Part shown: piece after piece, positions 434 to 32,000 of the stretch
Position numbering within the stretch: position 1 is the stretch's first letter
Layout: each line of letters begins with the position of its first letter
Assembly (NCBI RefSeq): GCF_900167395.1
Contig: NZ_FUWK01000033.1
Location: forward strand, 1-32,000
From: Nitrosomonas europaea
GTDB taxonomy: Bacteria > Pseudomonadota > Gammaproteobacteria > Burkholderiales > Nitrosomonadaceae
Direction of reading: 5' to 3'
DNA: 32,000 nt
Translations under genes and position numbers: made by a program
Notes under the pieces: generated by a model
Told to the model about the DNA's origin: nothing
The model's database searches: none
What the model saw: the letters and a program-made list of their open reading frames with translations, nothing else

Positions 434-1048
434 TCATGCGGTACCTAGCAAAGAGTTAAGGGTTCTTGTACCTGAAGGCGATAATAACCAGCCGAGTGCT
501 CCGCAGTTGAGTATGACGGTAACCCAGAACGTGGTTTGGAATGACGCTTTGGCTGACTTGTGCCGAAGTAGTCGCTGTGCGGCCAGAGCACCGGGCCAAC
601 CACCGAGAAGGGCGAATAAATGCAATGTACTTTCCTGGATTCGCCATTGATTCCGTAAGGCTGCGGATTTGTCGAATGCGTAGGCGAAGAAGGCAACGAT
701 ACTTGCAATGGTGTAAAACGCGAGGACAGGACTGGGAAGCCGGCCAGCGACGACGACACCAACGACAAAGATCAGGAAACAAACAGCGAATAGTGGGGGA
801 AGGCTGCTGCGGCTCGGAGCCTTAGGCGGTGTGGGCTGTTCGCCAACAAACGCGACAGCTTTCGCTTGGGAGCGGCCTTTACTATCGACCGTGAGTTCAT
901 AGGTGACGAGTTCGTTTCCTTCTGGCCGGCGCTGCCGGCTGGAAAACGAGTTGATATGTACAAAGATTTGCTCTCCGCCGCCGTTGGGTGTGACGAAGCC
1001 AAAGCCTTTGTCATCCTTCCACGTGGTAATTCGGCCTTGATAACGCAT
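434..1048 (-). CDS. Cold-shock domain fused to a DUF1294 membrane domain
   Basis: ATG at 1048, TGA at 434-436. The N-terminus MRYQGRITTWKDDKGFGFVTPNGGGEQIFVHINSF is a canonical CspA-like OB fold (KGFGF motif). A Pro-rich linker is followed by several hydrophobic helices containing HLFALLGGWPGALAAQRLLRHKS, typical of DUF1294. The architecture is recurrent but functionally uncharacterised. Confidence 0.85.
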   Translation of the reverse strand: MRYQGRITTWKDDKGFGFVTPNGGGEQIFVHINSFSSRQRRPEGNELVTYELTVDSKGRSQAKAVAFVGEQPTPPKAPSRSSLPPLFAVCFLIFVVGVVVAGRLPSPVLAFYTIASIVAFFAYAFDKSAALRNQWRIQESTLHLFALLGGWPGALAAQRLLRHKSAKASFQTTFWVTVILNCGALGWLLSPSGTRTLNSLLGTA

Positions 1049-1132
1049 ATCGATTTGATGAGAGGGCTAACATCTAAATTCACCGGTGCGCCGCCGCAGC
1101 GCGTAGCGCGGAGGTGTCCGCCCCAACGGCTG

Positions 1133-1700
1133 GTTAGATTTCATTTTGTGATCTTGGCCTTTTCGGTGGCAGCCACAAGCCCCTTTAGGAATCGGATTCC
1201 CTTCTCCAGCTCGTCGCGTTTAACTTTGTGGGGTTCGGCGCTTGCATGAAGAGCGGTGTTTGCCTTATGGGCGGCGTCCCCGCGTTTAGCCACCAGTGAA
1301 TCCAGCACTTTCTTCGAGGTGCTACTGTCGTAATTCTCCCACACCCAATCCTTGGTGATGTCCACGTCGAAGTAGTCGATAAAGATACGCCGGGTACGTT
1401 CATCATTTGGGTTGAAAAAACGCTTGAGATCTTCCTCAAGACGGCGCCGTACAAATTTTCCTAGAGGGCTCCCTTCTACCGCTTGAAGCCACGTGTCAAT
1501 CTCTGACTGGAGACGATCCTTAACGTAGGTTTCCCATGCCGCCAGTGCCATGACCAGTCCAGCGCGCTTCAAGACTTCGCCGTTGTGGCCGTTTGGCACT
1601 GTCTTCTCCGCGTCGTGCCTCGCGAGGAGATCCTCAGCGTCTCGGATGGCTCTTTCGAATGCGTCGAATGCTTTGGTCATGGCTGGTAATGAAATCTAAC
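1133..1700. repeat. Perfect 13-bp inverted repeat pair bracketing the HEPN ORF (arms 1133-1145 and 1688-1700)
   Basis: Plus strand 1133-1145 reads gttagatttcatt. Plus strand 1688-1700 reads aatgaaatctaac, its exact reverse complement. One arm overlaps the stop codon; the other ends 7 nt upstream of the ATG. Confidence 0.9.
1141..1680 (-). CDS. Stand-alone HEPN-domain protein (putative RNase), RiboL-PSP-HEPN-like layout
   Basis: ATG at 1680, TGA at 1141-1143; 179 aa, predicted all-helical. R133-GDAA-H138 fits the HEPN Rx4-6H motif in the C-terminal third. It is preceded by the conserved-looking helix LVMALAAWETYVKD. Family placement is from memory of HEPN architectures, not from a search. Confidence 0.6.
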   Translation of the reverse strand: MTKAFDAFERAIRDAEDLLARHDAEKTVPNGHNGEVLKRAGLVMALAAWETYVKDRLQSEIDTWLQAVEGSPLGKFVRRRLEEDLKRFFNPNDERTRRIFIDYFDVDITKDWVWENYDSSTSKKVLDSLVAKRGDAAHKANTALHASAEPHKVKRDELEKGIRFLKGLVAATEKAKITK

Positions 1701-6675: not shown

Positions 6676-9600
6676 ATGAAATTTTCCACAATCCTTACCT
6701 TCCTGAGTGGTACCACCTTCGTATATCCTGCCGCATTTGCGCAAAGTATCATCGCCAGCGGTAATATTCTTCCCGGTATCCCGGCGCCGCCTCTTGCGCT
6801 ATGGCAACCTGCCAATTTACGTGTGGGCGTGAATGCAGCGGGCACGCTTTCCATTACCGATGGTGGTATGGTTGCCGGTCCGGGTCAGGCGCTCCTCGGC
6901 TCTGCCGTTGGTAGTTCTGGCACGGTGATGGTCAGTGGTAATGATTCCCTGTTCTCCACCGTATTGCAAATGCACGTGGGTAGTAGTGGCACGGGCACTC
7001 TCAAGATTGAGGACAGGGGCACCGCCAATATCGGTACATTCCTTTATATCGGCCGTTTCATTGGTTCCGATGGCCTCGTGACTGTGAGCGGCGCGGGATC
7101 GAGGCTGACCAACGGCAACATGATGCAGGTCGGTAGCGAAGGCACCGGCGCTTTGATCATCGAAGATGGTGCAACGGTGAACAGCACGAACGTGACCCGG
7201 ATCGGCTGGAGCTCGACAGGTATAGGTACGGCTATCGTTCAGGGTTCCGGTTCAAGCTGGACAACGAACAACTCGATGTCCGTGGGTTTCGGCGGCTCTG
7301 GCAGATTGCTGATCGTAGATGGTGGCGCTGTAAGCAATGTCGAAGGCTTTGTCGGCCGCGAGACCGGATCGACCGGCGAGGTGACGGTCTCAGGCGCGGG
7401 TTCTTCCTGGTCGAACAGCGCGGCCCTTGAGATCGGCAGTTTCGGCATGGGCGAGTTGATGGTCGAAGACGGTGGTGCACTCAGCAACACGGATGGCCGG
7501 ATCGGGCGGGAGGCCGGCGCTATCGGTACCGTGACGATCAAGGATGCGGGTTCCACCTGGAGCAACACGGGTACGCTCTACATCGGCGATCTCGGCAAAG
7601 GTACGCTGACTGTTGCCGATGGCGGCAAGGCGAATATCGTGGCCAGCTTCGTGATTGGCCGCCAGGCGGGCGCCGAAGGTCTCGTGACCTTAAGCGGCGC
7701 GGGATCGAGCCTCATCAACACCAGTTCCACGCAGGTCGGCGGCGCGGGCAAGGGTACGCTGATCGTCGAGAATGGCGGCGTGGGCCAATCGAACAACCTC
7801 TCGGTCGGGGTCTCGTCAGGCAGCACCGGATCGGTCGCGGTTCGCGGCGCCGATTCACGCTGGATCGCAGGCAGCATCCTGACCATCGGCGCAAGCGGCC
7901 ATGGCACGCTGACGATCGAAGACGGCGGCTCGGTCACCAGCACTCTGACCACTATCGGGTCCAACACTTCGGGTCTCGGCGAAGCGACCGTCTCAGGCGC
8001 GGACTCCACCTGGACCAACAGCGGCGCCCTCATTGTAGGAGCACTGGGCAACGGCACGCTCACCGTCTCAGACGGCGGCATGGTTTCGAATGCAACCGCA
8101 GGTATTGGCGTCGGTACAGGCCGCCAGGGCGTGGCCCTGGTTTCCGGCGCTGGCGCACGCTGGATCAACAGCGGTGATTTAACCGTCGGTACCAACGGCA
8201 GCGCCACCCTGACCGTCGCAGACGGTGGCCATGTTAGTGTCGGCGGCGGCAACGGCATTGTTCATGTCGCTGAAGCCGCGACAGCAAATGGCGTGGTGAA
8301 TATCGGGGCTGCGGCGGGTAGTGCGCCGGTCGGGGCCGGCACGCTGGGCGCCGCCGAAGTTCGTTTTGGCGACGGCACCGGCAGGCTTAATTTCAATCAT
8401 ACCGATAGCGCCTATCTCTTCTCACCCGTCATCACCGGAAACGGGGCGCTCAATCACTATTCCGGCACGACCATCCTGACCGGCGACAACACCTATAGCG
8501 GTTCTACGATGATTGCGGGCGGTGTGCTCCAGCTCGGCAATGGCGGCACGAGCGGCTCGGTCACCAGCGACATCCAGATCGACAGCACAGGAACACTGCG
8601 CATTGATCGTTCAAATGACTGGACCTATGCAGGTATCCTTTCCGGGACTGGCGTCTTCGATCAATTGGGCACCGGTACGACGATGCTCACCGGCAACAGC
8701 GCTGCTTTTAACGGTACGACGACGGTTACGAATGGCCGTCTGATCGTTGGCATGGGCGGCGCCGGGACGCTCGGCGGTATGGTCAATGTGCTGGATGGCG
8801 CAACACTTGGCGGTTCGGGCACGGTCGGTAGCGCCGGGGCCGACGTCACCATCCTTGGCGGCGGTGTGCACGCGCCGGGTAACAGCGTTGGCGTTCAGAC
8901 CATTGCCGGCAACTACGTCAATTACGGCACACTGCGAATCGACGGTACACCGGCGGGGACGGACATGCTCATTGTGCAGGGTGGCGTCGATATTACCGGT
9001 GCCACCCTCGATCTCCAGCTTTCTCCTCCCGTGGCGTCGGGCTGGAATATCATCAACGGGCCGTTCACTATCATCGACAAGCAGAGTGCCGGCGCAGTGG
9101 CTGGCAGCTTCGGCGCGGTCAACAACAATCTGTTGTTCCTCGATCCATACGTGAATTATGCTGGTGGCGATGGCAACGATATCACGCTCGATTTCGTGCG
9201 CAATGACGTTGCCTTTGCATCGGTCGCGCTCACTCCGAACCAGATCGCGACGGGCAGGGGAATTGGTACGCTGCCTTATGGCCACCCGATATGGAACACG
9301 ATTGCGCTCATGAGCGATGAGGTCGCCGTGCGCCGGAGCTTCGACTTTCTTTCGGGAGAAATCCATGCCACTGCATCCAGCGTGCTGCTCGAAGAAAGCC
9401 GTTTTCCGCGCAGAGCAGTCAATGACCGGCTTCGATCCGCGTTTGACACAAATACCGACACTGCATTCTGGGCACATGGCTATGGGGCCTGGGCCGGTTG
9501 GCAGAGTGATGGCAACGCTGCCTCCCTCAAACGCGATACTGGCGGGTTGCTCCTGGGCCTCGATGGTCAGCTTGGCAACTGGCGGACAGGCGTCATGACC

Positions 9601-10275
9601 GGCCGTAGCTGGACTGGTGTGACGGTTGCTGACCGGGCCTCGACCGCCGAGGCCGGAACGTGGTATGCCGGTCTCTATGGAGGCACCCAATGGGGCGATC
9701 TGGGCTTGCGTCTTGGTTTGTTGCATGGCGAGCATGACATCGACACCCGGCGCACGGTTGCCGTCCCCGGTCTTTCCGGAACTTTGCGCAGTACTCATGG
9801 TGCGAGTACGACCCAGGCTTTCGGAGAGCTGGCTCACACCCTCCATTTTGGCATTGTGCGCTATGAGCCATTTGCTAACCTCGCCCATATTCACACACGT
9901 TCGAACAGGTTTACCGAAACCGGGGGCAGTATGGCTCTGGCCGGCCGACGCAGCACGATGTCTGCGACTGTCATGACGCTGGGCCAACGCATCGAAGCTG
10001 CACATGTTTTCCGCGGGACAGGCATCAGAACCGTTGGCATGATCGGTTGGCAGCATGTTTGGGGTGATGTGATTCCGCGTTCGACCCATCGCTTTTCCAT
10101 GGGTGATCCCTTTACCATCGCCGGTACGCCACTCGCACGCAACAATCTGCTGGTCGAGGGCGGGTTCGAATTGTCACTGGGCAGGCGTGCGGCGATTGGT
10201 GCCAGCTATACCGGCCGCTTCGCACATAACGGGCATGATCATGCCGCTACTGCAGTGCTGCGCATCGGTTTCTGA
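6676..10275 (+). CDS. Autotransporter (type Va secretion) outer-membrane protein, 1199 aa
   Basis: Signal peptide MKFSTILTFLSGTTFVYPAAFA-QS. Ten Gly/Thr-rich passenger repeats of about 50 aa follow. Next come autotransporter-associated beta-strand repeats (YSGTTILTGDNTYSGSTMIAGGVLQLGNGG). The C-terminus is a beta-barrel translocator ending ...AATAVLRIGF with a terminal Phe. Confidence 0.9.
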   Translation: MKFSTILTFLSGTTFVYPAAFAQSIIASGNILPGIPAPPLALWQPANLRVGVNAAGTLSITDGGMVAGPGQALLGSAVGSSGTVMVSGNDSLFSTVLQMHVGSSGTGTLKIEDRGTANIGTFLYIGRFIGSDGLVTVSGAGSRLTNGNMMQVGSEGTGALIIEDGATVNSTNVTRIGWSSTGIGTAIVQGSGSSWTTNNSMSVGFGGSGRLLIVDGGAVSNVEGFVGRETGSTGEVTVSGAGSSWSNSAALEIGSFGMGELMVEDGGALSNTDGRIGREAGAIGTVTIKDAGSTWSNTGTLYIGDLGKGTLTVADGGKANIVASFVIGRQAGAEGLVTLSGAGSSLINTSSTQVGGAGKGTLIVENGGVGQSNNLSVGVSSGSTGSVAVRGADSRWIAGSILTIGASGHGTLTIEDGGSVTSTLTTIGSNTSGLGEATVSGADSTWTNSGALIVGALGNGTLTVSDGGMVSNATAGIGVGTGRQGVALVSGAGARWINSGDLTVGTNGSATLTVADGGHVSVGGGNGIVHVAEAATANGVVNIGAAAGSAPVGAGTLGAAEVRFGDGTGRLNFNHTDSAYLFSPVITGNGALNHYSGTTILTGDNTYSGSTMIAGGVLQLGNGGTSGSVTSDIQIDSTGTLRIDRSNDWTYAGILSGTGVFDQLGTGTTMLTGNSAAFNGTTTVTNGRLIVGMGGAGTLGGMVNVLDGATLGGSGTVGSAGADVTILGGGVHAPGNSVGVQTIAGNYVNYGTLRIDGTPAGTDMLIVQGGVDITGATLDLQLSPPVASGWNIINGPFTIIDKQSAGAVAGSFGAVNNNLLFLDPYVNYAGGDGNDITLDFVRNDVAFASVALTPNQIATGRGIGTLPYGHPIWNTIALMSDEVAVRRSFDFLSGEIHATASSVLLEESRFPRRAVNDRLRSAFDTNTDTAFWAHGYGAWAGWQSDGNAASLKRDTGGLLLGLDGQLGNWRTGVMTGRSWTGVTVADRASTAEAGTWYAGLYGGTQWGDLGLRLGLLHGEHDIDTRRTVAVPGLSGTLRSTHGASTTQAFGELAHTLHFGIVRYEPFANLAHIHTRSNRFTETGGSMALAGRRSTMSATVMTLGQRIEAAHVFRGTGIRTVGMIGWQHVWGDVIPRSTHRFSMGDPFTIAGTPLARNNLLVEGGFELSLGRRAAIGASYTGRFAHNGHDHAATAVLRIGF
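6838..8236 (+). repeat. Ten in-frame tandem repeats of about 150 bp (about 50 aa) in the autotransporter passenger, T5SS/PEP-CTERM-associated repeat type
   Basis: Recurrent unit G-x-G-x-L-x-[IV]-x-[DN]-G-G ... G-x-x-G-x-V-x-V-S-G-x-x-S-x-W-x-N ... [IV]-G. Ten unit starts are visible: AGTLSITDGG, TGTLKIEDRG, TGALIIEDGA, SGRLLIVDGG, MGELMVEDGG, KGTLTVADGG, KGTLIVENGG, HGTLTIEDGG, NGTLTVSDGG, SATLTVADGG. An identical 17-mer agcggcgcgggatcgag occurs at 7087-7103 and 7693-7709, 606 bp apart and in frame. Confidence 0.8.
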
Positions 10276-20448: not shown

Positions 20449-21606
20449 TTATTTACGAGCCTGAAGATAATCCATTACGGCCTGCCCCGATCCTTTGAAA
20501 CAGGGGTTTACGCGACGGCGCTGCAGTGATCCGAGATACAGTGGGTCGTAGTAGTATCTCACCAGTTTTTCGATCCAGATTTTGTTCGATTGAATTTCAT
20601 TTTTGTTTTCAAAGTCGGATCGTGCATTTTCCAGATCTTCTGACACTTCCTGAAATCTGTCTCCTCCCAGTTTCTTACTGATTGCCTGCAAGGCACCGGC
20701 GTATTTGTCAAATAGCTGCCTTGCCTGCTGACGCAGTATTTCCCGAGTTTCAACCGTTGAAGCCAGTGGCGGGATCGCTTGCCGAATCCGTTGTGCCTGG
20801 CCGATCGGTGTAGTGAGGATGTAATCCTCAAAAATGTTATCTACTCGGGTGGCAAGGGGTTCATCTACCCAGATGATTTCCGAATTGCGCAGATGATGGA
20901 AAAAACTGTCAGGCAAATATACTTTGCCGGTATGCCGGCTTTCATCTTCCACGATTACCGGTTCAGACAGGTTGTTTTGTTCCAGCTTGAGCAGGTTGAC
21001 GGCCAGGTGGTTTTCGAAATCGATTTGTGAAGGTTGAGGAACAGACATTCCGCCGAAGGCGGAGCCGCGATGCCGGGCAAGGGCTTCGATGTCGAGGACT
21101 GGATGACTGTTGCTGATGTCGTGGATCAGCCGAGTTTTGCCGCTGCCCGTCGGCCCGGTAATCACCAGCAGTTTACGATGTTCACTGAACCGGTCGATGG
21201 TACTGATTAAAAATTGTCTTGCCCGTTTATAACCGCCGGTGATCAGGGGGCTGTCAATACCGGTATCCCTCAGCCATTGCTGTGTGATCTGTGAACGCTT
21301 GCCCCCACGGAAACAATACAGTATGGCTCGAGGGTGCTGATGGATGAAATCGAGCCACTGCTGCAGTCGATTTTGTTTGACTGAACCCGAAACCATCTCA
21401 TAGCCCAGTTTGATGGCCGCTTCAGAGCCTTGTTGCTTGTAGGTGGTGCCGACAAGGGCACGTTCCTCATCGTTGAGGATGGGCAGATTGACTGCACCGG
21501 GCAGAGATCCTTGCGTGAACTCGACGGGTGCACGTACGTCGATCAGCGGCGTATCTGCTATGAATAAGGCCGTCAGGTCATCGATGCCGATGTCTGGATT
21601 ACGCAA
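20449..21606 (-). CDS. selU: tRNA 2-selenouridine synthase
   Basis: N-terminal rhodanese domain with the active-site loop YCFRGGKRS, and P-loop GPTGSGKT. ADTPLIDVRAPVEFTQGSLPGAVNLPILNDEERALVGTTYKQQG parallels E. coli SelU/MnmH (YbbB). The only available start is TTG 21606, which overlaps the selD 3' end by 8 nt. Confidence 0.85.
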   Translation of the reverse strand: MRNPDIGIDDLTALFIADTPLIDVRAPVEFTQGSLPGAVNLPILNDEERALVGTTYKQQGSEAAIKLGYEMVSGSVKQNRLQQWLDFIHQHPRAILYCFRGGKRSQITQQWLRDTGIDSPLITGGYKRARQFLISTIDRFSEHRKLLVITGPTGSGKTRLIHDISNSHPVLDIEALARHRGSAFGGMSVPQPSQIDFENHLAVNLLKLEQNNLSEPVIVEDESRHTGKVYLPDSFFHHLRNSEIIWVDEPLATRVDNIFEDYILTTPIGQAQRIRQAIPPLASTVETREILRQQARQLFDKYAGALQAISKKLGGDRFQEVSEDLENARSDFENKNEIQSNKIWIEKLVRYYYDPLYLGSLQRRRVNPCFKGSGQAVMDYLQARK

Positions 21607-22648
21607 ACTGTACCGCTTTGTCTTGATGGGGGTGAACGGTTCCCACTATGACGGCAGACGGGAACCGGGTGTGCAACGCCTGCAGCATGGTCTGACTGGT
21701 TTCGGGTGCTACACTCAGCAGCAAACCGCCGCTGGTCTGCGGGTCATGGATCAGTAGTTTATGCAGCGCATCCAGTGTTGAATCGTCGATGTGTGGTGTG
21801 GTGTATTCCGCGTTTGTCCGGTGTGCTTTGGTCAGGCAACCGTTTTCCAGGCAATGGAAAGTCTTGTCAAACCGGGGGAGGTTGCCGGTTTCGATGCACA
21901 GGGTGACATCACTGGCATTCGCCAGTTGCATGGCGTGGCCGGAAAAACCGAATCCCGTGATGTCGGTGGCAGCGTGAATGGATGCCTGTAAATCCGGCGA
22001 CATGCAGTCGATAGCGTTATTGATGGCTGTCATGCTATCGAGCGCTTCGATGATGTCTTCCTCACGCAGTTGCTGTCGTTTCACTGCGGCTGTCATGGTG
22101 CCCGTTCCCAGCGCCTTGGTCAGAATCAGATGATCTCCGGGTCTGGCGCCAGCGTTGGTCCATACCTGACGAGGATTGACAAACCCGGTGACCGACAGGC
22201 CAAACTTCAGGGTGTCATCGTCGATCGAATGGCCTCCAACGAAATTGGCACCAGCTTCGGCAATCTTGTCGCTGGCGCCTTGCAGAACATCGACGATGAC
22301 CTGTTCGGGCAGAGCCGCCAGCGGAAATGCCAGAATACCCATGGCTGTCACCGGTCTGCCGCCCATGGCATAAACATCGCTGAGCGCATTGGCGGCAGCG
22401 ATTTCACCGAAAAGCTTCGGGGTATCGACGATTGGCGTGAAGAAATCCAACGTCTGTACCAGAGCAGTTTCTTCATTGACCCGGTAGATGGCAGCATCGT
22501 CGAAATACCGGCCATCCACCATCAGTGCGGGGTGCGCAGCTGGAAAACCGACCTGCTGCAAAATCCGGCGCAGTTCCGTTGCTGCAACCTTGGCAGCACA
22601 CCCGCCTTTCTGTACCGTCTGGGTCAGTGCAATTTTTTCTGAGGGCAT
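21599..22648 (-). CDS. selD: Selenide, water dikinase (selenophosphate synthetase), Cys-type
   Basis: N-terminal loop TQTVQKGGCAAKV (Cys, not Sec, at the catalytic position) and the AIR-synthase-like fold motifs. The ORF is open to 22741, but ATG 22648 (MPSEKIALTQ...) gives the canonical length of about 349 aa. Confidence 0.9.
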   Translation of the reverse strand: MPSEKIALTQTVQKGGCAAKVAATELRRILQQVGFPAAHPALMVDGRYFDDAAIYRVNEETALVQTLDFFTPIVDTPKLFGEIAAANALSDVYAMGGRPVTAMGILAFPLAALPEQVIVDVLQGASDKIAEAGANFVGGHSIDDDTLKFGLSVTGFVNPRQVWTNAGARPGDHLILTKALGTGTMTAAVKRQQLREEDIIEALDSMTAINNAIDCMSPDLQASIHAATDITGFGFSGHAMQLANASDVTLCIETGNLPRFDKTFHCLENGCLTKAHRTNAEYTTPHIDDSTLDALHKLLIHDPQTSGGLLLSVAPETSQTMLQALHTRFPSAVIVGTVHPHQDKAVQFA

Positions 22649-22845
22649 GATTGTTCGAAAGAGAAAGCGTTCTTGAGAGGAAGAAGGTATAGGGAATGAG
22701 GTTGATGTGTCAAATACTCCGGCAGTACCGGCCCATGGCAAATTCAGTGGAATTGCGGTTGTCTGCTGGCGGACTGAAACCCCATGGTCGGTGACGGTAT
22801 ATAATAGCGCCAGGGTTAACCTGTCTCGTTATCAATAATTCTGCC

Positions 22846-24890: not shown

Positions 24891-25217
24891 GTGAAAAAGG
24901 CAGCAGCCATTAAACTACTTATCGCTTCTGGCATGATTCTGTCGTTTTCCGGCATGGCAAGTGCAGCCGGGAATACTGATTCGGTCCAGAGCAAAATTGT
25001 CATGTGCCAAGGCTGTCATGGTATAGAGGGATATCGTACTGCGTACCCACATGTTTATCATGTGCCAAAACTGGGTGGACAGCATTCAGCTTACCTGGTC
25101 AAAGCACTGAAAGATTACAGATCCGGAGAGCGTAACCATCCAACCATGGTTGGTATTGCAGGGACACTTTCCGATGAGGATATCGATGCGTTGGCTGCTT
25201 ATTACGCCGGTAATTGA
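24891..25217 (+). CDS. Monohaem class I cytochrome c (cytochrome c4 half-domain-like)
   Basis: GTG start 8 nt after AGGAGG. Signal peptide, CQGCH haem site, PKLGGQ...Y, and the Met ligand in HPTM. Confidence 0.85.
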   Translation: MKKAAAIKLLIASGMILSFSGMASAAGNTDSVQSKIVMCQGCHGIEGYRTAYPHVYHVPKLGGQHSAYLVKALKDYRSGERNHPTMVGIAGTLSDEDIDALAAYYAGN

Positions 25218-25250: not shown

Positions 25251-25577
25251 ATGAAAAGCTATTTGGTGGCCGCAGTCAGCGGGTTGATATTTTTTTTATC
25301 GGGACAGGTAAGCGCAGCAGATATTGAAGCCGGGAAAAAGAAAGCAGAGGAGATATGCTCATCCTGTCACGGTCTGGATGGCAACAGTCCGGTGCCAATG
25401 TTTCCGAAAATTGGCGGCCAGCCCAGAACCTACATCGAGAAAGTATTGAAAGATTACAAATCAGGGGTACGTAAGGATCCGGTCATGGCTGGTATGGCAG
25501 CTGCCTTGAGTGCGGAAGATATCGACAATCTGGCGTTTTACTATTCCAGCCAGTCAGGATTACAAGTCAAGCGGTAA
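25251..25577 (+). CDS. Monohaem class I cytochrome c (second c4 half-domain-like paralogue)
   Basis: Signal peptide, CSSCH, PKIGGQ...Y, DPVM. Same 108-aa length as the upstream gene and collinear with it. Confidence 0.85.
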   Translation: MKSYLVAAVSGLIFFLSGQVSAADIEAGKKKAEEICSSCHGLDGNSPVPMFPKIGGQPRTYIEKVLKDYKSGVRKDPVMAGMAAALSAEDIDNLAFYYSSQSGLQVKR

Positions 25578-25608
25578 AACCGCTTCCGTTATTTATACGG
25601 AGGCTGAG

Positions 25609-25652
25609 AAGCGGAGTGTGTCCCGGGGTCGGGTACATTCCGCTTTTTTATT
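25609..25652 (+). terminator. Intrinsic terminator after the cytochrome c pair (overlaps the stop of the convergent DUF1841 gene)
   Basis: Stem aagcggagtgt (25609-25619) / acattccgctt (25635-25645) with one mismatch, followed by ttttta-ttt. Confidence 0.6.
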
Positions 25653-26085: not shown

Positions 26086-26327
26086 TACCGCAGATTTTGT
26101 AAAGGGTGATACCAGAAGATGACAGGATAATTCTGCTGTCATCATACACCGAAGAAAACATGATTTCCGGTAAAGGTGGAACTGCGCAATTTCAACCTGA
26201 TTCATGACGGGTGCATGAATATCCCTGCCCTGATTTGATCGGGTAGGTTTGAAGTGCTTACCTTTCCTGATCGATGGAGTACACTAGACTGGCAACACTC
26301 GTGTTTTCTGTCAACGGATGTTTTTTA

Positions 26328-27149
26328 ATGATGAGTCGGGTATCACAAGCGCTTGCGCCCGTTTTATTTTTACCGCACGGTGGCGGGCCGTTACCTGTTC
26401 TGGGTGACAAAGAGCATGAGAAGATGGTCTCCTTTCTGAGAGAAATCGCGACCGAGCTGGGTGAACCGCCAGCAATTCTGATTATCAGTGCCCACTGGGA
26501 AGAGGAACAGGCGACGATAACGAGCAATAGTCAACCTGGAATAATTTATGATTATTATGGATTTCCTGCTGCGGCTTACGAAATTCAATATGCAGCGCCT
26601 GGTCATCCCGGGCTGGCGAATGAAATTTATACCCTGTTGACAGCAAACGGTATTCCGGCGAGACTCGATGAACAACGCGGTTTCGATCACGGGATGTTTG
26701 TACCGCTCAAGCTGATGTTTCCACAAGCCCGGATTCCTTGTGTCCAGTTGTCGTTGTTGAATAACCTGAATCCTCGAATGCATATTGCGCTTGGCAAAGC
26801 CATTACCGCTTTGCGAAGCAGAAATATTCTGATCGTCGGTTCAGGCATGTCATTTCACAATTTGAAAGCATTTTTCTCGAGCACGGTTGATGGCCGCGGA
26901 GAAAATGAGGCATTTGACAACTGGCTGATTGAAACATGCACCCATCCGGCAATTGCGCCCGAAATGCGTGAACAGCGGTTGATCGAGTGGGAAAAGGCGC
27001 CTTTTGCCCGATTCTGTCATCCAAGAGAAGAACACTTGTTGCCATTGCATGTCTGCTATGGTGTCGCTTGTGTCGATACCCCGACAGCACGGACTGTATT
27101 CAACGGAGAAATCATGGGCAGGAAAGTAACGAGCTTTCTCTGGCAGTAG
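26328..27149 (+). CDS. Class III extradiol ring-cleavage dioxygenase (YgiD / 4,5-DOPA dioxygenase-like)
   Basis: FLPHGGGPLPVLG...ILIISAHWE...IYDYYGFP...FDHGMFVPL...GSGMSFHNL...EHLLPLHV carries the His ligands typical of LigB-type/YgiD proteins. Start at ATG 26328 or 26331 rather than 26274. Confidence 0.8.
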   Translation: MMSRVSQALAPVLFLPHGGGPLPVLGDKEHEKMVSFLREIATELGEPPAILIISAHWEEEQATITSNSQPGIIYDYYGFPAAAYEIQYAAPGHPGLANEIYTLLTANGIPARLDEQRGFDHGMFVPLKLMFPQARIPCVQLSLLNNLNPRMHIALGKAITALRSRNILIVGSGMSFHNLKAFFSSTVDGRGENEAFDNWLIETCTHPAIAPEMREQRLIEWEKAPFARFCHPREEHLLPLHVCYGVACVDTPTARTVFNGEIMGRKVTSFLWQ

Positions 27150-27228
27150 GCTGCTGACGGAATATGCGAATTCAGTATCATCGGCCTGGAACATTTGGAA
27201 TCGTGATGAAACTCAGTGGAGAATCCGT

Positions 27229-27555
27229 ATGAAAAAACTGAAATTAAAAGCCGCGGTATCTGGTTTCCTGTTTACTGCCATATTAATGAACAGTGCATGG
27301 TCGGCACAAGAAGAGAAGCCCGGTACCGGTTTCGCGTGGAAGGATGGTGCAGAAATTTACGCCAAAATCTGTGCTTATTGTCATGAGGCCAATGTCGGGC
27401 CGCAAATTCGTAACCGTGAACTTCCTGCAATCTATATCCGTGCGATCGTTCGTAATGGAAGCCGGGCCATGCCCGCTTTTCGCTCTTCTGAAATCGACGA
27501 TGAATCACTGGCAAAAGTGGCAGATTTCATTTCTCAGAAAGCATCTCAGTATTGA
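27229..27555 (+). CDS. Small periplasmic cytochrome c, PchC-like (cytochrome subunit of p-cresol-methylhydroxylase-type flavocytochromes)
   Basis: Signal peptide, CAYCH, and IVRNGSRAMPAF...DDESLAKVADFI. From memory this resembles the PchC C-terminal region. The gene sits two genes upstream of the flavoprotein. Confidence 0.75.
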   Translation: MKKLKLKAAVSGFLFTAILMNSAWSAQEEKPGTGFAWKDGAEIYAKICAYCHEANVGPQIRNRELPAIYIRAIVRNGSRAMPAFRSSEIDDESLAKVADFISQKASQY

Positions 27556-27570
27556 AGGAGGTCCTGCTCC

Positions 27571-28518
27571 ATGGATGAAACCCGACGTGACTTCATCAAA
27601 GGTATGTTTGCCAGTGGAACTTTCCTGGCTCTTGGTGTGCCCGGAATTGCTCGAGCGGCATCGGTTGGGCCGCTTTTCGACAGCACACGAAATTGCCGGC
27701 TATTATTGGGAAATACCACCGGTGCCGAATCATTTGCAAAAGGTGTGCAGTCTGCCTGTTTCAACCATGGCAGCCGCCATCATGGTGCGTTACCGGTATT
27801 CCGGTTCGAAAGTGAGTTATCAACCGGTTTTTTGCATTTGGTCGATTTGTTGATGCAATCGCGGAATACGCGCTGGATTGCTGTCATGGATCATGCCGAT
27901 GCAGCCATATTTACTGAGCTGATACGAAATTCCGCCGCTCATCTGCTGGCATCAGGCTCACATACTTTTGCAGCCGGTGATCATGCGGCTCTGCCGTTGC
28001 GTCATGTATGGGCTGCGGCATCACCAGCCTACAGTACAGGAGGGTTACTGGCATCGATGCTGGCTCGCGAGCAGTACAGTTTCTCGATTGTCGAACGTTT
28101 TCTCACGCAATCAGCGGGGGAAAGTATAGAAAATGCTGCACTATCTCTCCCGGAATTTTTGCCGTATCACCGGGCTGATCAGCCTGTAACCCGTTTGTAT
28201 TGTGCTGGTGTACCGCTTCCGGAAGCCGGCCGGCTGCTCGGCTGGGAAACATCAAAAAATCAGGAATCCTTATTTTCCCGGACCATTGCCTCTACTGCCA
28301 GCCGGAATGAAACAGCAGGTAGTACGACAGTTGAATATCCGCAATCCGGTGACTGGGTTGAAGCTACCGGTTATGCAGTTGCAGCAGCTGCACTGGGGAT
28401 GAAAATAAACCGGGAATCATGTTCTGAGCGCGCATTCGTATATCGGTCAGGCCAGGGTCATCCGGATCATAAAGGGTTGTCGGGAGTAAATTTCGCCTCA
28501 TTTGTAATCGACGTGTAG
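27571..28518 (+). CDS. Tat-signal protein of unknown function (in the position of pchX)
   Basis: Consensus twin-arginine leader MDETRRDFIKGMFASGTFLALGVPGIARA-AS. No cofactor motif recognised. The SD AAGGAGG lies 9 nt upstream. The gene is tightly packed between the cytochrome and flavoprotein genes. Confidence 0.7.
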   Translation: MDETRRDFIKGMFASGTFLALGVPGIARAASVGPLFDSTRNCRLLLGNTTGAESFAKGVQSACFNHGSRHHGALPVFRFESELSTGFLHLVDLLMQSRNTRWIAVMDHADAAIFTELIRNSAAHLLASGSHTFAAGDHAALPLRHVWAAASPAYSTGGLLASMLAREQYSFSIVERFLTQSAGESIENAALSLPEFLPYHRADQPVTRLYCAGVPLPEAGRLLGWETSKNQESLFSRTIASTASRNETAGSTTVEYPQSGDWVEATGYAVAAAALGMKINRESCSERAFVYRSGQGHPDHKGLSGVNFASFVIDV

Positions 28519-28530
28519 GGAGAATACAGT

Positions 28531-30075
28531 ATGGCCAGTAAATATATTGCATTGCCGAAAGGAGTATCAGAAAAAGATTTCGAGGCGGCTGTCGGTCATT
28601 TTCGCGGAATATTGGGCGATGACGCCGTACTCACCAGTGCGGAACAGCTTATACCCTATACCAAGACCATGATGCCGGTTCCTGATGCCGAGCATACGCC
28701 CTCCATCGCATTGCTGGCGACAACGGTTGAACAGATCCAGAAAATCGTTGCGGTTTGTAATCAGTACAAGATACCGGTCTGGACGATTTCCACCGGCAAA
28801 AATTTAGGTTATGGTTCGGCAGCTCCGGCGGAGCGCGGTCAGATAGTGCTCGATCTCAAACGTATGAATCGTATCCTCGAAGTGGATAAGGATCTGGCCT
28901 TTGCCCTGGTTGAGCCCGGGGTGACGTACCAGCAGCTCTACGATTACATCAAAGAACATAAACTGGGTCTGTGGTTATCCATGCCTGCGCCTTCAGCCAT
29001 TGCCGGGCCGGTTGGTAATACGCTGGATCGTGGTGTCGGGTATACACCCTATGGAGAACATTTTCTGTTCGCTTGCGGTATGGAAGTGGTGCTTGCCAAT
29101 GGTGAAGTGCTGCGCACGGGGATGGGATCGATGCCTAACTCTAATACCTGGCAGGTATTCAAATGGGGGTATGGCCCCTATCTGGATGGTATTTTTACGC
29201 AGTCCAACTATGGCATCGTTACCAAATTCGGATTCTGGCTGATGCCTGAACCCCCGGCGTTCAAGCCATTCGTGATTCAATACGAACATGAAGAAGACAT
29301 CGTGGAAATCGTGGAAACGATCCGCCCGCTGCGTATCAGTGGAGTCATTCCAAATGCAGTCGTTATTGCACATGCGCTGTATGAAGCACCTGTGAAAGCG
29401 CGGCGGGGTGATTATGTGAGCGGACCGGGTTCGATTCCGGATGAGGCCGTTTACCGGATTATGAAAGATCATAAACTCGGGATCTGGAATGTGTATGCGG
29501 CGCTCTATGGCACGCAGGAACAGATTGATGTGAACTGGAAGATCGTGACACAGGCATTTGGTCAGTCGGGCAAGGCCAAAATCCTGACAGAGCAGGAAGC
29601 GGCAAATGATCCTGCATTTGCTTATCGCACCAAGCTCATGCGTGGAGAAATGACATTGACAGAATTTTCGCTGTATAACTGGCGTGGAGGTGGCGGGTCG
29701 ATGTGGTTCGCACCTGTTTCCCAGGCGCGAGGAAGCGAAACACTCAAGCAGATGGCGCTGACCAAGCAGATTCTTGCCAAGTACGGGCTGGATTATTCCG
29801 GTGAATTTATCGTCGGGATGCGTGATATGCACCATATCGTCGATGTCTTGTACGACAAGACCGATGCAGAGCAAACGAAAGCAGCCTATCAGTGTTTTGA
29901 CGAGTTACTGACCGAATTTTCTGCACGAGGGTATGGAATTTATCGTGTCAATACGGCGTTCATGGATAAGGTGGCTGAAACCTATGGCCCGGTACAGAGA
30001 AATATTCACAGAACACTTAAAAAGGCGCTGGATCCTAACGGGATCCTGGCACCGGGAAAATCAGGCATTCGTTGA
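28531..30075 (+). CDS. FAD-linked oxidase of the VAO/PCMH family, PchF-like flavoprotein subunit
   Basis: FAD-binding PCMH-type domain (PVWTISTGKNLGYG, VEPGVTYQQL) and a cap domain with LYNWRGGGGSMWFAPV. Tyr382 sits about where the FAD-linked Tyr384 of PchF is expected. There is no N-terminal signal peptide. Confidence 0.85.
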   Translation: MASKYIALPKGVSEKDFEAAVGHFRGILGDDAVLTSAEQLIPYTKTMMPVPDAEHTPSIALLATTVEQIQKIVAVCNQYKIPVWTISTGKNLGYGSAAPAERGQIVLDLKRMNRILEVDKDLAFALVEPGVTYQQLYDYIKEHKLGLWLSMPAPSAIAGPVGNTLDRGVGYTPYGEHFLFACGMEVVLANGEVLRTGMGSMPNSNTWQVFKWGYGPYLDGIFTQSNYGIVTKFGFWLMPEPPAFKPFVIQYEHEEDIVEIVETIRPLRISGVIPNAVVIAHALYEAPVKARRGDYVSGPGSIPDEAVYRIMKDHKLGIWNVYAALYGTQEQIDVNWKIVTQAFGQSGKAKILTEQEAANDPAFAYRTKLMRGEMTLTEFSLYNWRGGGGSMWFAPVSQARGSETLKQMALTKQILAKYGLDYSGEFIVGMRDMHHIVDVLYDKTDAEQTKAAYQCFDELLTEFSARGYGIYRVNTAFMDKVAETYGPVQRNIHRTLKKALDPNGILAPGKSGIR

Positions 30076-30126
30076 CTGTATTTGTTCTTTGTACAAGAAA
30101 TGACCATCTCAAAGCGAGGAGTACAG

Positions 30127-31242
30127 ATGAGACGAATCAGGGCTGCAGTGGTTTACCAGAAAGGCGGGCCTTTTCAGATCGAAGATCTGAGGCTGGAAGC
30201 GCCGCGTACCGATGAGGTGCTGGTACGCATCGTAGCGACCGGGATGTGTCATACCGACATGGTGGCTCGTGACCAGCTTTATGATGTACCGCTACCGGTA
30301 GTCCTCGGGCATGAAGGTTCAGGTATCGTTGAACAGATCGGTGATGGTGTAAGAAAAGTGGCAGTTGGTAACCATGTTGTACTTACCTATATGTGGTGCG
30401 GTCATTGCAAACCCTGCCTGCGTGGCGATCTGACCTACTGCGAGCATTTTTATGCGCTGAATTTCGGGGGAGTACGTGAAGACGGCAGTACTTCGACCTG
30501 TCTGGCAAACGACACCCGGAGACCGATTCACGATCATTTTTTTGGACAATCATCATTTGGCACATTTGCTCTGGTGCATGAACGCAATGTGATCAAAGTA
30601 CCCGAAACTGCACCACTGGAACTACTTGGGCCATTGGGTTGCGGCATTCAGACGGGTGCCGGGGCGGTCATTAATACACTTAAAGTCAGCCCGGGCAGCA
30701 GTTTTGTAGCATTCGGCGGGGGTGCGGTAGGATTGAGTGCGGTGATGGCGGCACATGCTGCCGGTGCTACGACAATCATTTCTGTCGATGTAGTTCCTTC
30801 ACGCTTGGCGCTGGCAATGGAACTTGGCGCGACCCATACCATCAACAGTCGTGAAACGGATCCTGTTGAAGCGGTTCACAAGATTATTAATGGAGGGGCT
30901 GATTTCACTTTGGAATCGAGTGGACGCCCGGCCGTATTGCGCCAGGCCATCGATGCACTGGCGATCCGGGGGACATGCGGTATCGTCGGCGCGCCTGCAC
31001 TGGGTACTGAGGCGAGTTTCGATGTTAACGGCGTAATGACGACAGGCAAGCGCATCATCGGGATCGTCGAAGGGGACAGTAAGCCGGACCTTTTCATCCC
31101 GGCACTGGTCGAGCTCTACCAGCAAGGGAAATTTCCTTTCGACAGGCTGGTGAAGTTTTATTCCCTCGATCAGATCAATCAGGCTGCCGAGGATAGTGAA
31201 AAGGGCATCACGATCAAGCCGATCATCCGGTTGCAGTCATAG
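30127..31242 (+). CDS. Zn-dependent aryl/benzyl-alcohol dehydrogenase (MDR family)
   Basis: GMCHTD, GHEGSGIV, structural-Zn Cys cluster CGHCKPCLRGDLTYC, Rossmann GGGAVGLS. ATG 30127 is preceded by GAGGAG; TTG 30082 is unlikely. Confidence 0.85.
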   Translation: MRRIRAAVVYQKGGPFQIEDLRLEAPRTDEVLVRIVATGMCHTDMVARDQLYDVPLPVVLGHEGSGIVEQIGDGVRKVAVGNHVVLTYMWCGHCKPCLRGDLTYCEHFYALNFGGVREDGSTSTCLANDTRRPIHDHFFGQSSFGTFALVHERNVIKVPETAPLELLGPLGCGIQTGAGAVINTLKVSPGSSFVAFGGGAVGLSAVMAAHAAGATTIISVDVVPSRLALAMELGATHTINSRETDPVEAVHKIINGGADFTLESSGRPAVLRQAIDALAIRGTCGIVGAPALGTEASFDVNGVMTTGKRIIGIVEGDSKPDLFIPALVELYQQGKFPFDRLVKFYSLDQINQAAEDSEKGITIKPIIRLQS

Positions 31243-32000
31243 ATTTTATACTTCACCTCCTGCCTCGTAAATCTGCACGAAATCTGGAAATCGACGCCTT
31301 TGCGGCGTGTTTCTCCCAGGTTCTGCGTTGCATTGGCGCTCGGCAGGTTGGCGACCTCGGCAGTGGCATCCTGCTGCCAGAGCGCGATTCGGGCTTCTGT
31401 CCGCTTAGTCAGACGGAACTTGGTGCCCAGTTCGATGCCGGTATTGATTGACGGCTTGATTTCAGCAGTACCAGTAGTCAGGTAGGCCGGTGAGCGGGAT
31501 CCGGTGACGATCTGGAAGGTACGTCCCCAGTTGCCATAGACGCTGAAGGCTGCCGACGGACTATATACGATGCTCAGCTTGGGCTGGTTGATCCAGTCGT
31601 AATCTTGCAAGGGATAGGTCTGTCCGGTCGCGTTGAGCGTGGTGTGTCCCTTGAACGTGTCAGTTCGGATCGCTGGTACGATCTTCCAGGATCTACCCGG
31701 TTTGATGACTGCCTGAACGTAGGCGCCGAAGTTGTCGAGGGTATAGCTGTCGTCGTTGGCTGTCGAGGCAGGTGTGGAGAAATTTATCGGCTCGGCATAG
31801 GCGTAACGATAGCGACGATAGCGGTTGTTCTGGTGTTCGTAGTTGAAGCCGCCCTCGATGGCGATTTGCTCGTTAGCCTGCCAAGTCAGTGTGTTGATCC
31901 AGCCCAGGTGTTTCTCGTTCCATAGGCGGCGTTGGCGTGGCAGGGTACTGCCTGAGTAGCTGCTGTAGGTGACATGACGATCATCATTGATGCTGTTGTA
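31179..32000 (-). pseudogene. TonB-dependent receptor, barrel fragment; the N-terminus lies beyond the window and the C-terminal 120-140 aa or so are missing
   Basis: My hand translation shows the minus-strand frame open from 32000 to the stop at 31179, with barrel-like sequence (...NYEHQNNRYRRYRYAYAEP...YSPSAAFSVYGNWGRTFQ...GETRRKGVDFQIS). After the RGxE/D-type motif the reading turns into unrelated sequence that overlaps the ADH 3' end by 64 nt. It ends ...SLSSAA instead of the terminal aromatic residue. Confidence 0.55.

Follow-up and report, generated by a model that had tools for sequence, protein, structure and literature searches.

p-Cresol methylhydroxylase (PCMH) is a textbook flavocytochrome that has been studied since the 1970s and for which crystal structures are available. 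It is a periplasmic α2β2 complex of the flavoprotein PchF and the cytochrome PchC in which the cytochrome alone carries a signal peptide, and a 2025 preprint credits the localization of the enzyme to the Sec signal of this cytochrome. The cytochrome's Sec signal cannot carry a folded FAD protein, and in the literature that we searched we found neither an explanation of PchF export nor a role for the neighbouring gene pchX; a Tat or hitchhiker function for pchX was also not found there, although an earlier mention in the older primary papers is possible. The question of how the flavoprotein reaches the periplasm, and of what the product of the middle gene does, is raised by three tightly packed genes on the + strand of Nitrosomonas europaea contig NZ_FUWK01000033.1 (GCF_900167395.1), at positions 27229–30075 of the 32000-nucleotide stretch of DNA analysed in the present study (the window). 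A comparison of related loci joins PchF export and the role of pchX into one testable hypothesis, and on this evidence, which is comparative and circumstantial, we consider it rather likely that the middle protein, X, would serve as a dedicated Tat hitchhiker escort for the signal-less flavoprotein of a periplasmic PCMH-type flavocytochrome c.

The ORF list of the window contained the three reading frames at exactly the coordinates that an earlier note on this DNA had given, all on the + strand, and the order claimed there, i.e. cytochrome c, Tat protein and flavoprotein, is the pchC-pchX-pchF order of the literature. The cytochrome gene is separated from X by 15 nt and X from the flavoprotein gene by 12 nt, with the Shine–Dalgarno sequences AGGAGG and GGGAG respectively. 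The first gene (27229..27555, + strand) encodes a pchC-like monohaem cytochrome c subunit of 108 aa, which matches the Pfam family Cytochrome_CBB3 (E=1.6e-19) and PchC of Pseudomonas putida (PDB 1dii_C, E=2.9e-19), the latter match beginning at residue 36, past the leader. Its haem c attachment motif, CAYCH (Cys48–His52; 27370..27384, + strand), aligns with CGHCH of PchC, and a Sec-type signal peptide, MKKLKLKAAVSGFLFTAILMNSAWS then AQ (27229..27303, + strand), could be read from the sequence with a putative cleavage site. It thus has the features of a PchC-type subunit, being a small class I cytochrome homologous with PchC that has a CxxCH motif and an N-terminal hydrophobic leader, and the Sec-type leader together with the haem c motif indicates that this cytochrome matures in the periplasm.

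The third gene (28531..30075, + strand) encodes a pchF-like flavoprotein of 514 aa with the VAO/PCMH fold, as judged from PDB and Pfam matches, which begins MASKYIALPKGV. Its residues 7–513 align with P. putida PchF (PDB 1dii_A and 1wve_A) at an E value of about 8e-233 and ~70% identity, and it contains the Pfam domains FAD_binding_4 (E=3.3e-28) and FAD-oxidase_C (E=2.2e-11). Alignment to PchF confirmed the proposal that Tyr382 in LYNWRGGGG (codon 29674..29676, + strand) is the equivalent of Tyr384, the 8α-O-tyrosyl-FAD residue, and further showed that the phenolate-binding residues Tyr95, Glu380, Tyr473 and Arg474 of PchF are kept as Tyr94, Glu378, Tyr471 and Arg472. The PDB sequence matches identify the flavoprotein and the cytochrome as PchF and PchC orthologues, in agreement with the PCMH type proposed for them. 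The enzyme would oxidize a 4-alkylphenol and deliver the electrons to periplasmic c-type cytochromes.

The earlier statement that the flavoprotein has no signal peptide also held, as no signal model matches its N-terminus, and the 35 homologues whose N-termini were read likewise lack a signal peptide. An N-terminal extension or signal peptide is moreover impossible because an in-frame TAG lies 12 nt 5′ of the ATG. Read-through of the X stop codon into the flavoprotein, which is in frame here (TAG and 12 nt apart), was considered as a candidate and rejected, since the two genes have a common frame in 27 of 74 loci, which is the level expected by chance.

The middle gene (27571..28518, + strand) encodes X, a protein of 315 aa with a twin-arginine signal peptide at residues 1–29 (27571..27657, + strand, the RR being encoded at 27583–27588), which was assigned from the sequence itself, its homologues and the TIGR01409 model. 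The leader starts MDETRRDFIKG, with TRRDFIK at residues 4–10, and continues with an h-region, GMFASGTFLALGVPGI, to residue 26 and the cleavage motif ARA followed by A. When the 201 six-frame ORFs of ≥50 aa from the window were scanned for [x]RRx[FLIVM][LIVM]K, the Tat consensus, a single one matched, namely X, at residue 4. TIGR01409 (TAT_signal_seq) matched residues 4–29 with 15.8 bits, slightly below its cut-off of 16.7 bits. The RR is invariant in all 43 of the 43 X homologues and in 20 distant X proteins that were aligned; PF10518 matches 4 of 20 distant members, TAT_signal being the sole family found there. No other Tat signal was seen in the operon. Tat proofreading chaperones of the TorD/DmsD/NapD type are cytoplasmic, signal-less proteins that bind the signal peptide of their substrate, and this role was rejected for X, which has a signal of its own and matched none of those Pfam families.

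X is genetically inseparable from the PchF-type flavoprotein. Among 79 PchF-homologue loci having at least 1.4 kb of upstream DNA, automatic scoring found a Tat-motif ORF immediately 5′ of the flavoprotein gene in 73. Inspection of the other six revealed such an ORF in five, of which two had been missed by the filter, one has a frameshift, one an in-frame stop and one the gene order X-C-F, so that a Tat-motif ORF adjoins the flavoprotein gene in 78 of the 79 loci overall, the remaining locus being N-masked at this position. Seven more distant plasmid homologues from Alpha- and Beta-proteobacteria, with flavoproteins 33–49% identical, all have an adjacent Tat-motif ORF as well, in the gene orders X-F, X-F-C, C-C-X-F or F-X. 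A Sulfuritalea locus has two flavoprotein genes (C-X-F-F), and both X and a cytochrome are missing from a Gram-positive oxidase-type homologue. Because a Tat-signal gene adjoins the signal-less flavoprotein gene in essentially every related operon examined, X is probably the carrier of the flavoprotein.

Such strict linkage would equally be expected for any dedicated accessory factor, and X could accordingly be a Tat-exported periplasmic assembly or accessory protein that is not itself the export vehicle, the flavoprotein being exported by some other route. It might hold the flavoprotein for docking on to the cytochrome, tether the enzyme or make contact with the physiological electron acceptor; the predicted AxA cleavage site, which implies a soluble periplasmic X, and the two-domain long forms of X, which exceed the needs of a bare adaptor, are consistent with a function of this kind. 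However, as X has the only Tat signal seen in the cluster, the export of a signal-less FAD-containing protein of 514 aa would then be left unexplained in all ~86 loci, and the smallest forms of X (126–181 aa) retain hardly anything beyond the signal and a single small domain. We consider this explanation unlikely, although it is the strongest of those that compete with an escort function.

The family to which X belongs comprises at least 225 clusters at 50% identity. The full protein, compared with Pfam, NCBIfam and the PDB sequences, matched no domain family and no cofactor or enzyme signature. Its AF2 model (pLDDT 71, pTM 0.77) is α/β with a Rossmann-like first domain, and a Foldseek comparison of this model with the PDB returned nothing significant (best E=0.12, TM <0.25). 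The earlier note had made the carrier reading depend on the middle protein being free of clear homology with an unrelated enzyme family, and by Pfam, NCBIfam, PDB and Foldseek it has homology with no enzyme family or solved fold. Among the related loci X varies in length from 126 to 346 aa, a nearly 3-fold range, and it diverges quickly, the median identity to the window proteins being 78% for the flavoprotein, 60% for the cytochrome and 41% for X. Long and short forms are nevertheless homologous over the signal and the first domain (hhalign 99.7%, E=4.5e-26). The RR signal is common to the homologues, most of which also have a small α/β domain, and a C-terminal strand is usually present; the RR is the sole feature that is invariant across all those aligned. 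An adaptor therefore fits X better than does a catalyst, given that only the RR is invariant, divergence is fast, length is variable and no cofactor or enzyme signature is present.

Conservation of another kind is seen within the nitrifier clade, in which His131, Arg144, His145, Asp107 and Glu175 of X are invariant, and a G-x-H...R-H motif recurs in most, though not all, of the distant members. This conservation, which is an observation against an escort, might reflect a site for binding or catalysis that belongs to some separate function. It would suit an independent Tat substrate in 4-alkylphenol metabolism, linked metabolically and not physically to the flavoprotein, whose role might be that of a small enzyme or of a binding protein for the substrate or for its reactive products (quinone methide or aldehyde); the predicted Rossmann-like domain, with its weak Foldseek resemblances to dehydrogenase and solute-binding folds, none of them significant, points in the same direction. 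We regard this as a distinctly improbable account of X, because neither the structure nor the sequence searches assigned it to a family, because such rapid divergence and so wide a range of lengths are unusual in enzymes, and because the linkage is still seen where flavoprotein identity has fallen to 33%, in operons whose substrates plausibly differ. It is very improbable that the flavoprotein is cytoplasmic here, as an oxidase or dehydrogenase working without the cytochrome and with the genes neighbours by descent only, for although it lacks a signal and has cytoplasmic oxidases among its VAO-type relatives, nothing specific favours this, whereas the cytochrome is a specific PchC homologue, nitrifiers share the C-X-F order, the close spacing and the ribosome-binding sites, and the Tyr for cytochrome-dependent flavinylation is kept, with a different motif in the oxidase-type relative.

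If X is a Tat escort, it would bind the folded flavoprotein, carrying non-covalent FAD, in the cytoplasm, and its signal peptide would take the X–flavoprotein pair through TatABC before being cleaved at ARA, before A. The periplasmic flavoprotein would then dock on the haem-loaded cytochrome, an event that for PchF triggers covalent flavinylation; covalent attachment of FAD to PchF is reported to require the cytochrome subunit. Purified P. putida PCMH is an α2β2 complex that has no third subunit, so that X would afterwards be displaced or at most weakly held.

In classical Tat hitchhiker pairs, such as the small and large subunits of hydrogenases or DmsA and DmsB, the partner with the RR exports the signal-less partner as a folded, cofactor-loaded complex. 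The signal-bearing partner in these pairs is a redox subunit of the final enzyme, whereas X has no cofactor motif and is apparently a carrier only. PchF and PchC suffice for the reconstitution of active PCMH, and X is therefore dispensable for catalysis, which has no bearing on export. Also to be set against an escort are the position of the X leader just under the Tat HMM cut-off, the lack of natural fusions, none joining X to the flavoprotein having been found as Rosetta-stone evidence in the best 150 of the 225 family clusters (all ≤343 aa), and the fact that X is unreported in purified PCMH; the escort must therefore be released, unlike the classical hitchhiker subunits.

A precedent for the mechanism is the γ subunit of the FAD-glucose dehydrogenase of Burkholderia cepacia (BcGDH), whose Tat signal serves for the hitchhiker export of an FAD subunit that lacks a signal and afterwards associates with a cytochrome c subunit; γ is described as being needed for the folding and secretion of the catalytic subunit. 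The likeness lies in the gene neighbourhood, in which a small protein with a twin-arginine leader accompanies an FAD subunit that has no signal and a cytochrome c that is exported on its own. However, γ is all-α, with five helices, whereas X is predicted to be α/β, and the two have no Pfam family, sequence or fold in common; the partner in BcGDH has the GMC fold and a 3Fe-4S cluster, compared with the VAO/PCMH fold here, and γ remains a subunit of the finished enzyme, in contrast with X, which is absent from the purified PCMH α2β2. With fold and sequence unrelated, X is an analogue of BcGDH γ and not a member of its family.

The nearest known operon is pchC-pchX-pchF of P. putida NCIMB 9866/9869 (PCMH, PDB 1DII/1WVE), which shares the gene order; homology of X is established only to the X proteins of other PchF operons, and P. 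putida PchX is likened to it by position. The flavoproteins are ~70% identical with the catalytic residues kept and the cytochromes are homologous, and in P. putida too only the cytochrome of the two has a signal peptide. The Nitrosomonas host is, however, chemolithoautotrophic, and its locus appears chromosomal whereas that of P. putida is plasmid-borne; a PLSDB plasmid search gave a best flavoprotein match of 65%, and no P. putida pch record was found there, among the 80 genome loci retrieved or among the names of the profile matches. There is also no adjacent pchA aldehyde dehydrogenase gene here, a Zn-dependent alcohol dehydrogenase gene coming next instead. The anaerobic p-cresol methylhydroxylases of Geobacter metallireducens (pcm) and Thauera aminoaromatica (Tmz1t_1839–1842), which we compared by description, are linked to an aldehyde dehydrogenase, and in Geobacter also to membrane-anchoring genes; the Geobacter pcm cluster encodes two flavoprotein paralogues, PcmI and PcmJ.

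Should X prove to be an escort, the X proteins would form a new family, that of the Tat carriers of VAO/PCMH-type enzymes, and would add a case of a carrier outside the final enzyme. This would also matter for the heterologous production of 4-alkylphenol, eugenol, bisphenol F and lignan hydroxylases, which are now expressed without X. The module is conserved in nitrifiers of two phyla (Nitrosomonas, Nitrosospira, Nitrotoga and Nitrospira), which raises the question of the role of a phenol-oxidizing flavocytochrome in chemolithoautotrophs. More tentatively, and with appreciable doubt, the PchX family might represent a new class of dedicated non-catalytic Tat escorts that hand the flavoprotein to the cytochrome and are then released, in which case the nitrifier enzyme could be a shield, placed in the periplasm, against 4-alkylphenols that inhibit nitrification, or could feed auxiliary electrons into the cytochrome c pool.

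Two further features flank the three genes. A weak σ70-like promoter match (9 of 12 matches) lies 5′ of the cytochrome gene (27154..27181, + strand), and as promoter-like sites in the region are no more numerous than in shuffled sequences it is merely a candidate. On the other side, the Zn-dependent alcohol dehydrogenase (30127..31242, + strand), assigned from profile matches and locus comparison, takes the fourth place in the module in those nitrifier loci that were examined, its position being shared with the Nitrosospira and Nitrotoga loci. The ORF of this gene opens with a TTG at 30082, and its probable start is the ATG at 30127, which lies behind GAGGAG.

The pchC-like cytochrome c gene (108 aa; 27229-27555), the gene for the middle protein X (315 aa; 27571-28518) and the pchF-like flavoprotein gene (514 aa; 28531-30075) all lie on the forward strand, and the three ORFs agree exactly with the coordinates assigned to them in the earlier note. 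They are tightly packed, with intergenic gaps of 15 and 12 nt and a good ribosome-binding site at each gap, and we found no terminator-like site between the genes of the operon; the promoter-like site upstream of the cytochrome gene (27154-27181) is only weak. Downstream of the flavoprotein, on the same strand, is a Zn-dependent alcohol dehydrogenase gene, the ORF of which opens at 30082 and has its probable start at the ATG at 30127, behind GAGGAG. The flavoprotein contains the Pfam domains FAD_binding_4 and FAD-oxidase_C and matches the crystallized PchF of P. putida (1dii_A and 1wve_A) over residues 7-513 with an E-value of about 8e-233, and the cytochrome, which has the CAYCH motif and typical Sec-type leader already read from the sequence, matches PchC (1dii_C; E=2.9e-19). 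Counting through the alignment with PchF, Tyr382 in LYNWRGGGG does correspond to Tyr384 of PchF, the FAD-linking residue, and PchF Tyr95, Glu380, Tyr473 and Arg474 are likewise conserved. The locus is a further instance of the known pchCXF-type operons.

The flavoprotein was also found to lack a signal peptide, as had been claimed: an in-frame TAG 12 nt upstream of its ATG leaves no space for an N-terminal signal, and signal-peptide models gave no match to its N-terminus. All 35 homologue N-termini extracted are leaderless and start like M(A/T)SKYIALPKGVSE. X and the flavoprotein share a reading frame in the window, with the TAG and 12 nt between them (28516-28533), but conserved read-through to a Tat-signal fusion was rejected, as the two frames coincide in 27 of 74 loci, which is the chance level, and the shared frame in the window is a coincidence and not a conserved feature.

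The N-terminus of X reads MDETRRDFIKGMFASGTFLALGVPGIARA, with predicted cleavage before the A that follows; it has a near-perfect twin-arginine consensus and an AxA cleavage motif at the predicted site, in keeping with the earlier reading of this leader. Of the 201 six-frame ORFs in the window, only X has the twin-arginine motif, and TIGR01409 scored 15.8 bits on X, below the cut-off of 16.7. The earlier note had proposed X as a Tat piggy-back carrier or assembly chaperone for the signal-less flavoprotein, and had counted clear homology of X with an unrelated enzyme family against this. We found no such homology, since X matched no domain family in Pfam or NCBIfam and no PDB sequence, and a Foldseek comparison of its model with the PDB gave nothing significant (best E=0.12, every TM <0.25). 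The AlphaFold2 model itself, built with 43 homologues, has a mean pLDDT of 71 and a pTM of 0.77 and shows alpha/beta domains behind a disordered leader.

The closest homologues of X among the matches listed are from Nitrosomonas MAGs (98%), and nearly all of the best 120 matches belong to Nitrosomonas, Nitrosospira, Nitrotoga and Nitrospiraceae, which identifies the window as Nitrosomonas DNA. When 1.84 billion representatives were searched with a profile, 225 clusters were obtained at E <1e-3. No fusion of X to a larger protein occurs among the best 150 of these 225, as each is at most 343 aa long, and many of the 150 are of 170-290 aa and match just the first ~180 profile positions. Profile-profile comparison (99.7%, E=4.5e-26) established homology between the long (nitrifier) and short forms across the signal and the first alpha/beta domain, and most members have a recurrent C-terminal strand like SFV(I/M)D(V/I).

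The main new evidence is the co-occurrence of X with the flavoprotein. We retrieved 80 genome loci with PchF homologues (66-95% identical), to which plasmid and metagenome loci were added, and restricted the count to the 79 loci in which the sequence extends 1.4 kb or more upstream of the flavoprotein gene. A PchC homologue was present in 78 of these 79, and in 73 automatic scoring detected an ORF with a Tat motif that terminates immediately ahead of the flavoprotein gene. Manual inspection of the remaining six revealed the order X-C-F in one (Novosphingobium pNL2), N-masking, an in-frame stop and a frameshift in one each, and a Tat motif missed by the hydrophobicity filter in two. These data show that the linkage is essentially universal among the related loci examined. 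In addition, the association holds for flavoproteins of far lower identity (33-49%) that are encoded on plasmids of Novosphingobium, Sphingobium, Paraburkholderia, Rhizobium, Roseomonas and Caballeronia, in the orders X-F, X-F-C, C-C-X-F or F-X, and the five of these seven flavoproteins that were read have a signal-less N-terminus. Distant X homologues chosen from the profile search also lie between cytochrome c and FAD-oxidase genes. The one Gram-positive homologue examined, of the oxidase type from Rhodococcus, was accompanied by neither cytochrome nor X. A Sulfuritalea MAG (locus L087, 2075-6246) has the order C-X-F-F, with two tandem flavoprotein paralogues behind a single Tat-signal X, an arrangement reminiscent of Geobacter PCMH, for which two isoforms of the flavoprotein have been reported.

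X is the fastest-evolving of the trio, with a median identity to the window of 41%, compared with 60% for the cytochrome and 78% for the flavoprotein (46, 68 and 89% respectively in the nitrifier clade), and its length varies between 126 and 346 aa. The invariant columns of the 43-sequence alignment include Arg5 and Arg6, and in an alignment of 20 distant members only the RR and one Gly are invariant. Strict linkage, the invariant RR, a conserved core that is small, with little constraint outside it, and the lack of a cofactor signature together point to X being an adaptor rather than an enzyme. His131, Arg144, His145, Asp107 and Glu175 are invariant in nitrifier-clade X, and the majority of distant members have a similar G-x-H...R-H motif; this conservation would be compatible with a further or different function.

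Sec substrates translocate unfolded and haem attachment is periplasmic, so that the signal of the cytochrome cannot carry a folded FAD protein. A preprint describes PCMH as a periplasmic alpha2beta2 PchF-PchC complex with a signal peptide on the cytochrome only, notes the same for PcmI/PcmG and BpfA/BpfB, and takes the signal of the cytochrome to direct the whole complex. Covalent flavinylation of PchF is reported to depend on the cytochrome subunit, so the flavoprotein would cross folded around non-covalent FAD and would have to use Tat. As X carries the sole Tat signal of the operon, export by hitchhiking is the simplest model: X would bind the flavoprotein while both are still cytoplasmic and cross the membrane with it via Tat, the leader of X would be cleaved, the cytochrome would then dock onto the flavoprotein and X would be released. 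On the basis of the linkage, the leader pattern and the divergence of X, the earlier interpretation of X as an export carrier of the flavoprotein is the best-supported explanation, and one towards which we lean.

A close parallel in mechanism is offered by the gamma subunit of the B. cepacia FAD-glucose dehydrogenase, a Tat-signal 'hitchhiker protein' needed to secrete the signal-less FAD subunit, which then joins the cytochrome c subunit. X is unrelated to this all-alpha protein and, whereas gamma stays in the mature enzyme, X is apparently not retained. The role proposed for X would follow the known Tat-hitchhiker principle, performed by a protein family without a Pfam or PDB match. Judged by its position, which agrees with that given for pchX in the literature, this family is probably PchX. 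No link of PCMH or pchX to Tat or hitchhiking was found in the literature searched. The long-standing gap concerning pchX function and the export route of PchF becomes directly testable.

The C-X-F cluster recurs in nitrifiers of two phyla (loci L003, L005, L026, L029, L035, L045 and others; window 27229-31242), namely in Nitrosomonas, Nitrosospira and Nitrotoga of the Betaproteobacteria and in Nitrospira of the Nitrospirota, and the Zn-alcohol dehydrogenase follows it in those Nitrosospira and Nitrotoga loci for which flanking genes were read. This recurrence, together with a flavoprotein identity to the window of 79-94% in nitrifiers compared with 66-72% in heterotrophs, suggests that the module has spread laterally and been retained and selected among chemolithoautotrophic nitrifiers. 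We found no mention of it in nitrifiers in the literature searched; one idea for its role there is that it detoxifies phenolic nitrification inhibitors.

Directly upstream of the operon lies a LigB-family extradiol ring-cleavage dioxygenase gene (26274-27149, +), which is 4,5-DOPA-dioxygenase-like but under the NCBIfam cut-off; the Nitrosospira module instead has an intradiol-dioxygenase-like gene, an aldehyde dehydrogenase and an FMN reductase downstream, and is flanked by a full TonB receptor. In the window, a 143-aa ORF (31179-31610, -) matches a TonB-dependent receptor in the middle part of the barrel only, and its 3' end shares ~60 nt with the end of the alcohol dehydrogenase gene; it is probably what is left of a receptor gene, or a frameshifted gene. 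Two monohaem c-type cytochromes of 108 aa, encoded in tandem (24891-25217 and 25251-25577, +) and both signal-like at the N-terminus, precede a strong terminator with an 18-bp stem (25606-25648); they weakly resemble the halves of the dihaem shuttle PdsA and could accept electrons from the flavocytochrome in the periplasm. The flanking genes are ordinary chromosomal ones (among others ABC-F ATPase, Fur, a two-component system, TonB-dependent receptors and DUF1841). An autotransporter of 1199 aa (6676-10275, +) with a beta-domain and PATR repeat has ~62% GC against an average of ~50% in the rest of the window, and at 434-1680 (-) a cold-shock-domain/DUF1294 protein adjoins a HEPN RiboL-PSP protein. 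At 20449-22741 (-), an AIR-synthase-family gene adjoins a rhodanese and P-loop (AAA-type) gene, a pair which looks like a putative selenophosphate synthetase (selD) and tRNA 2-selenouridine synthase.
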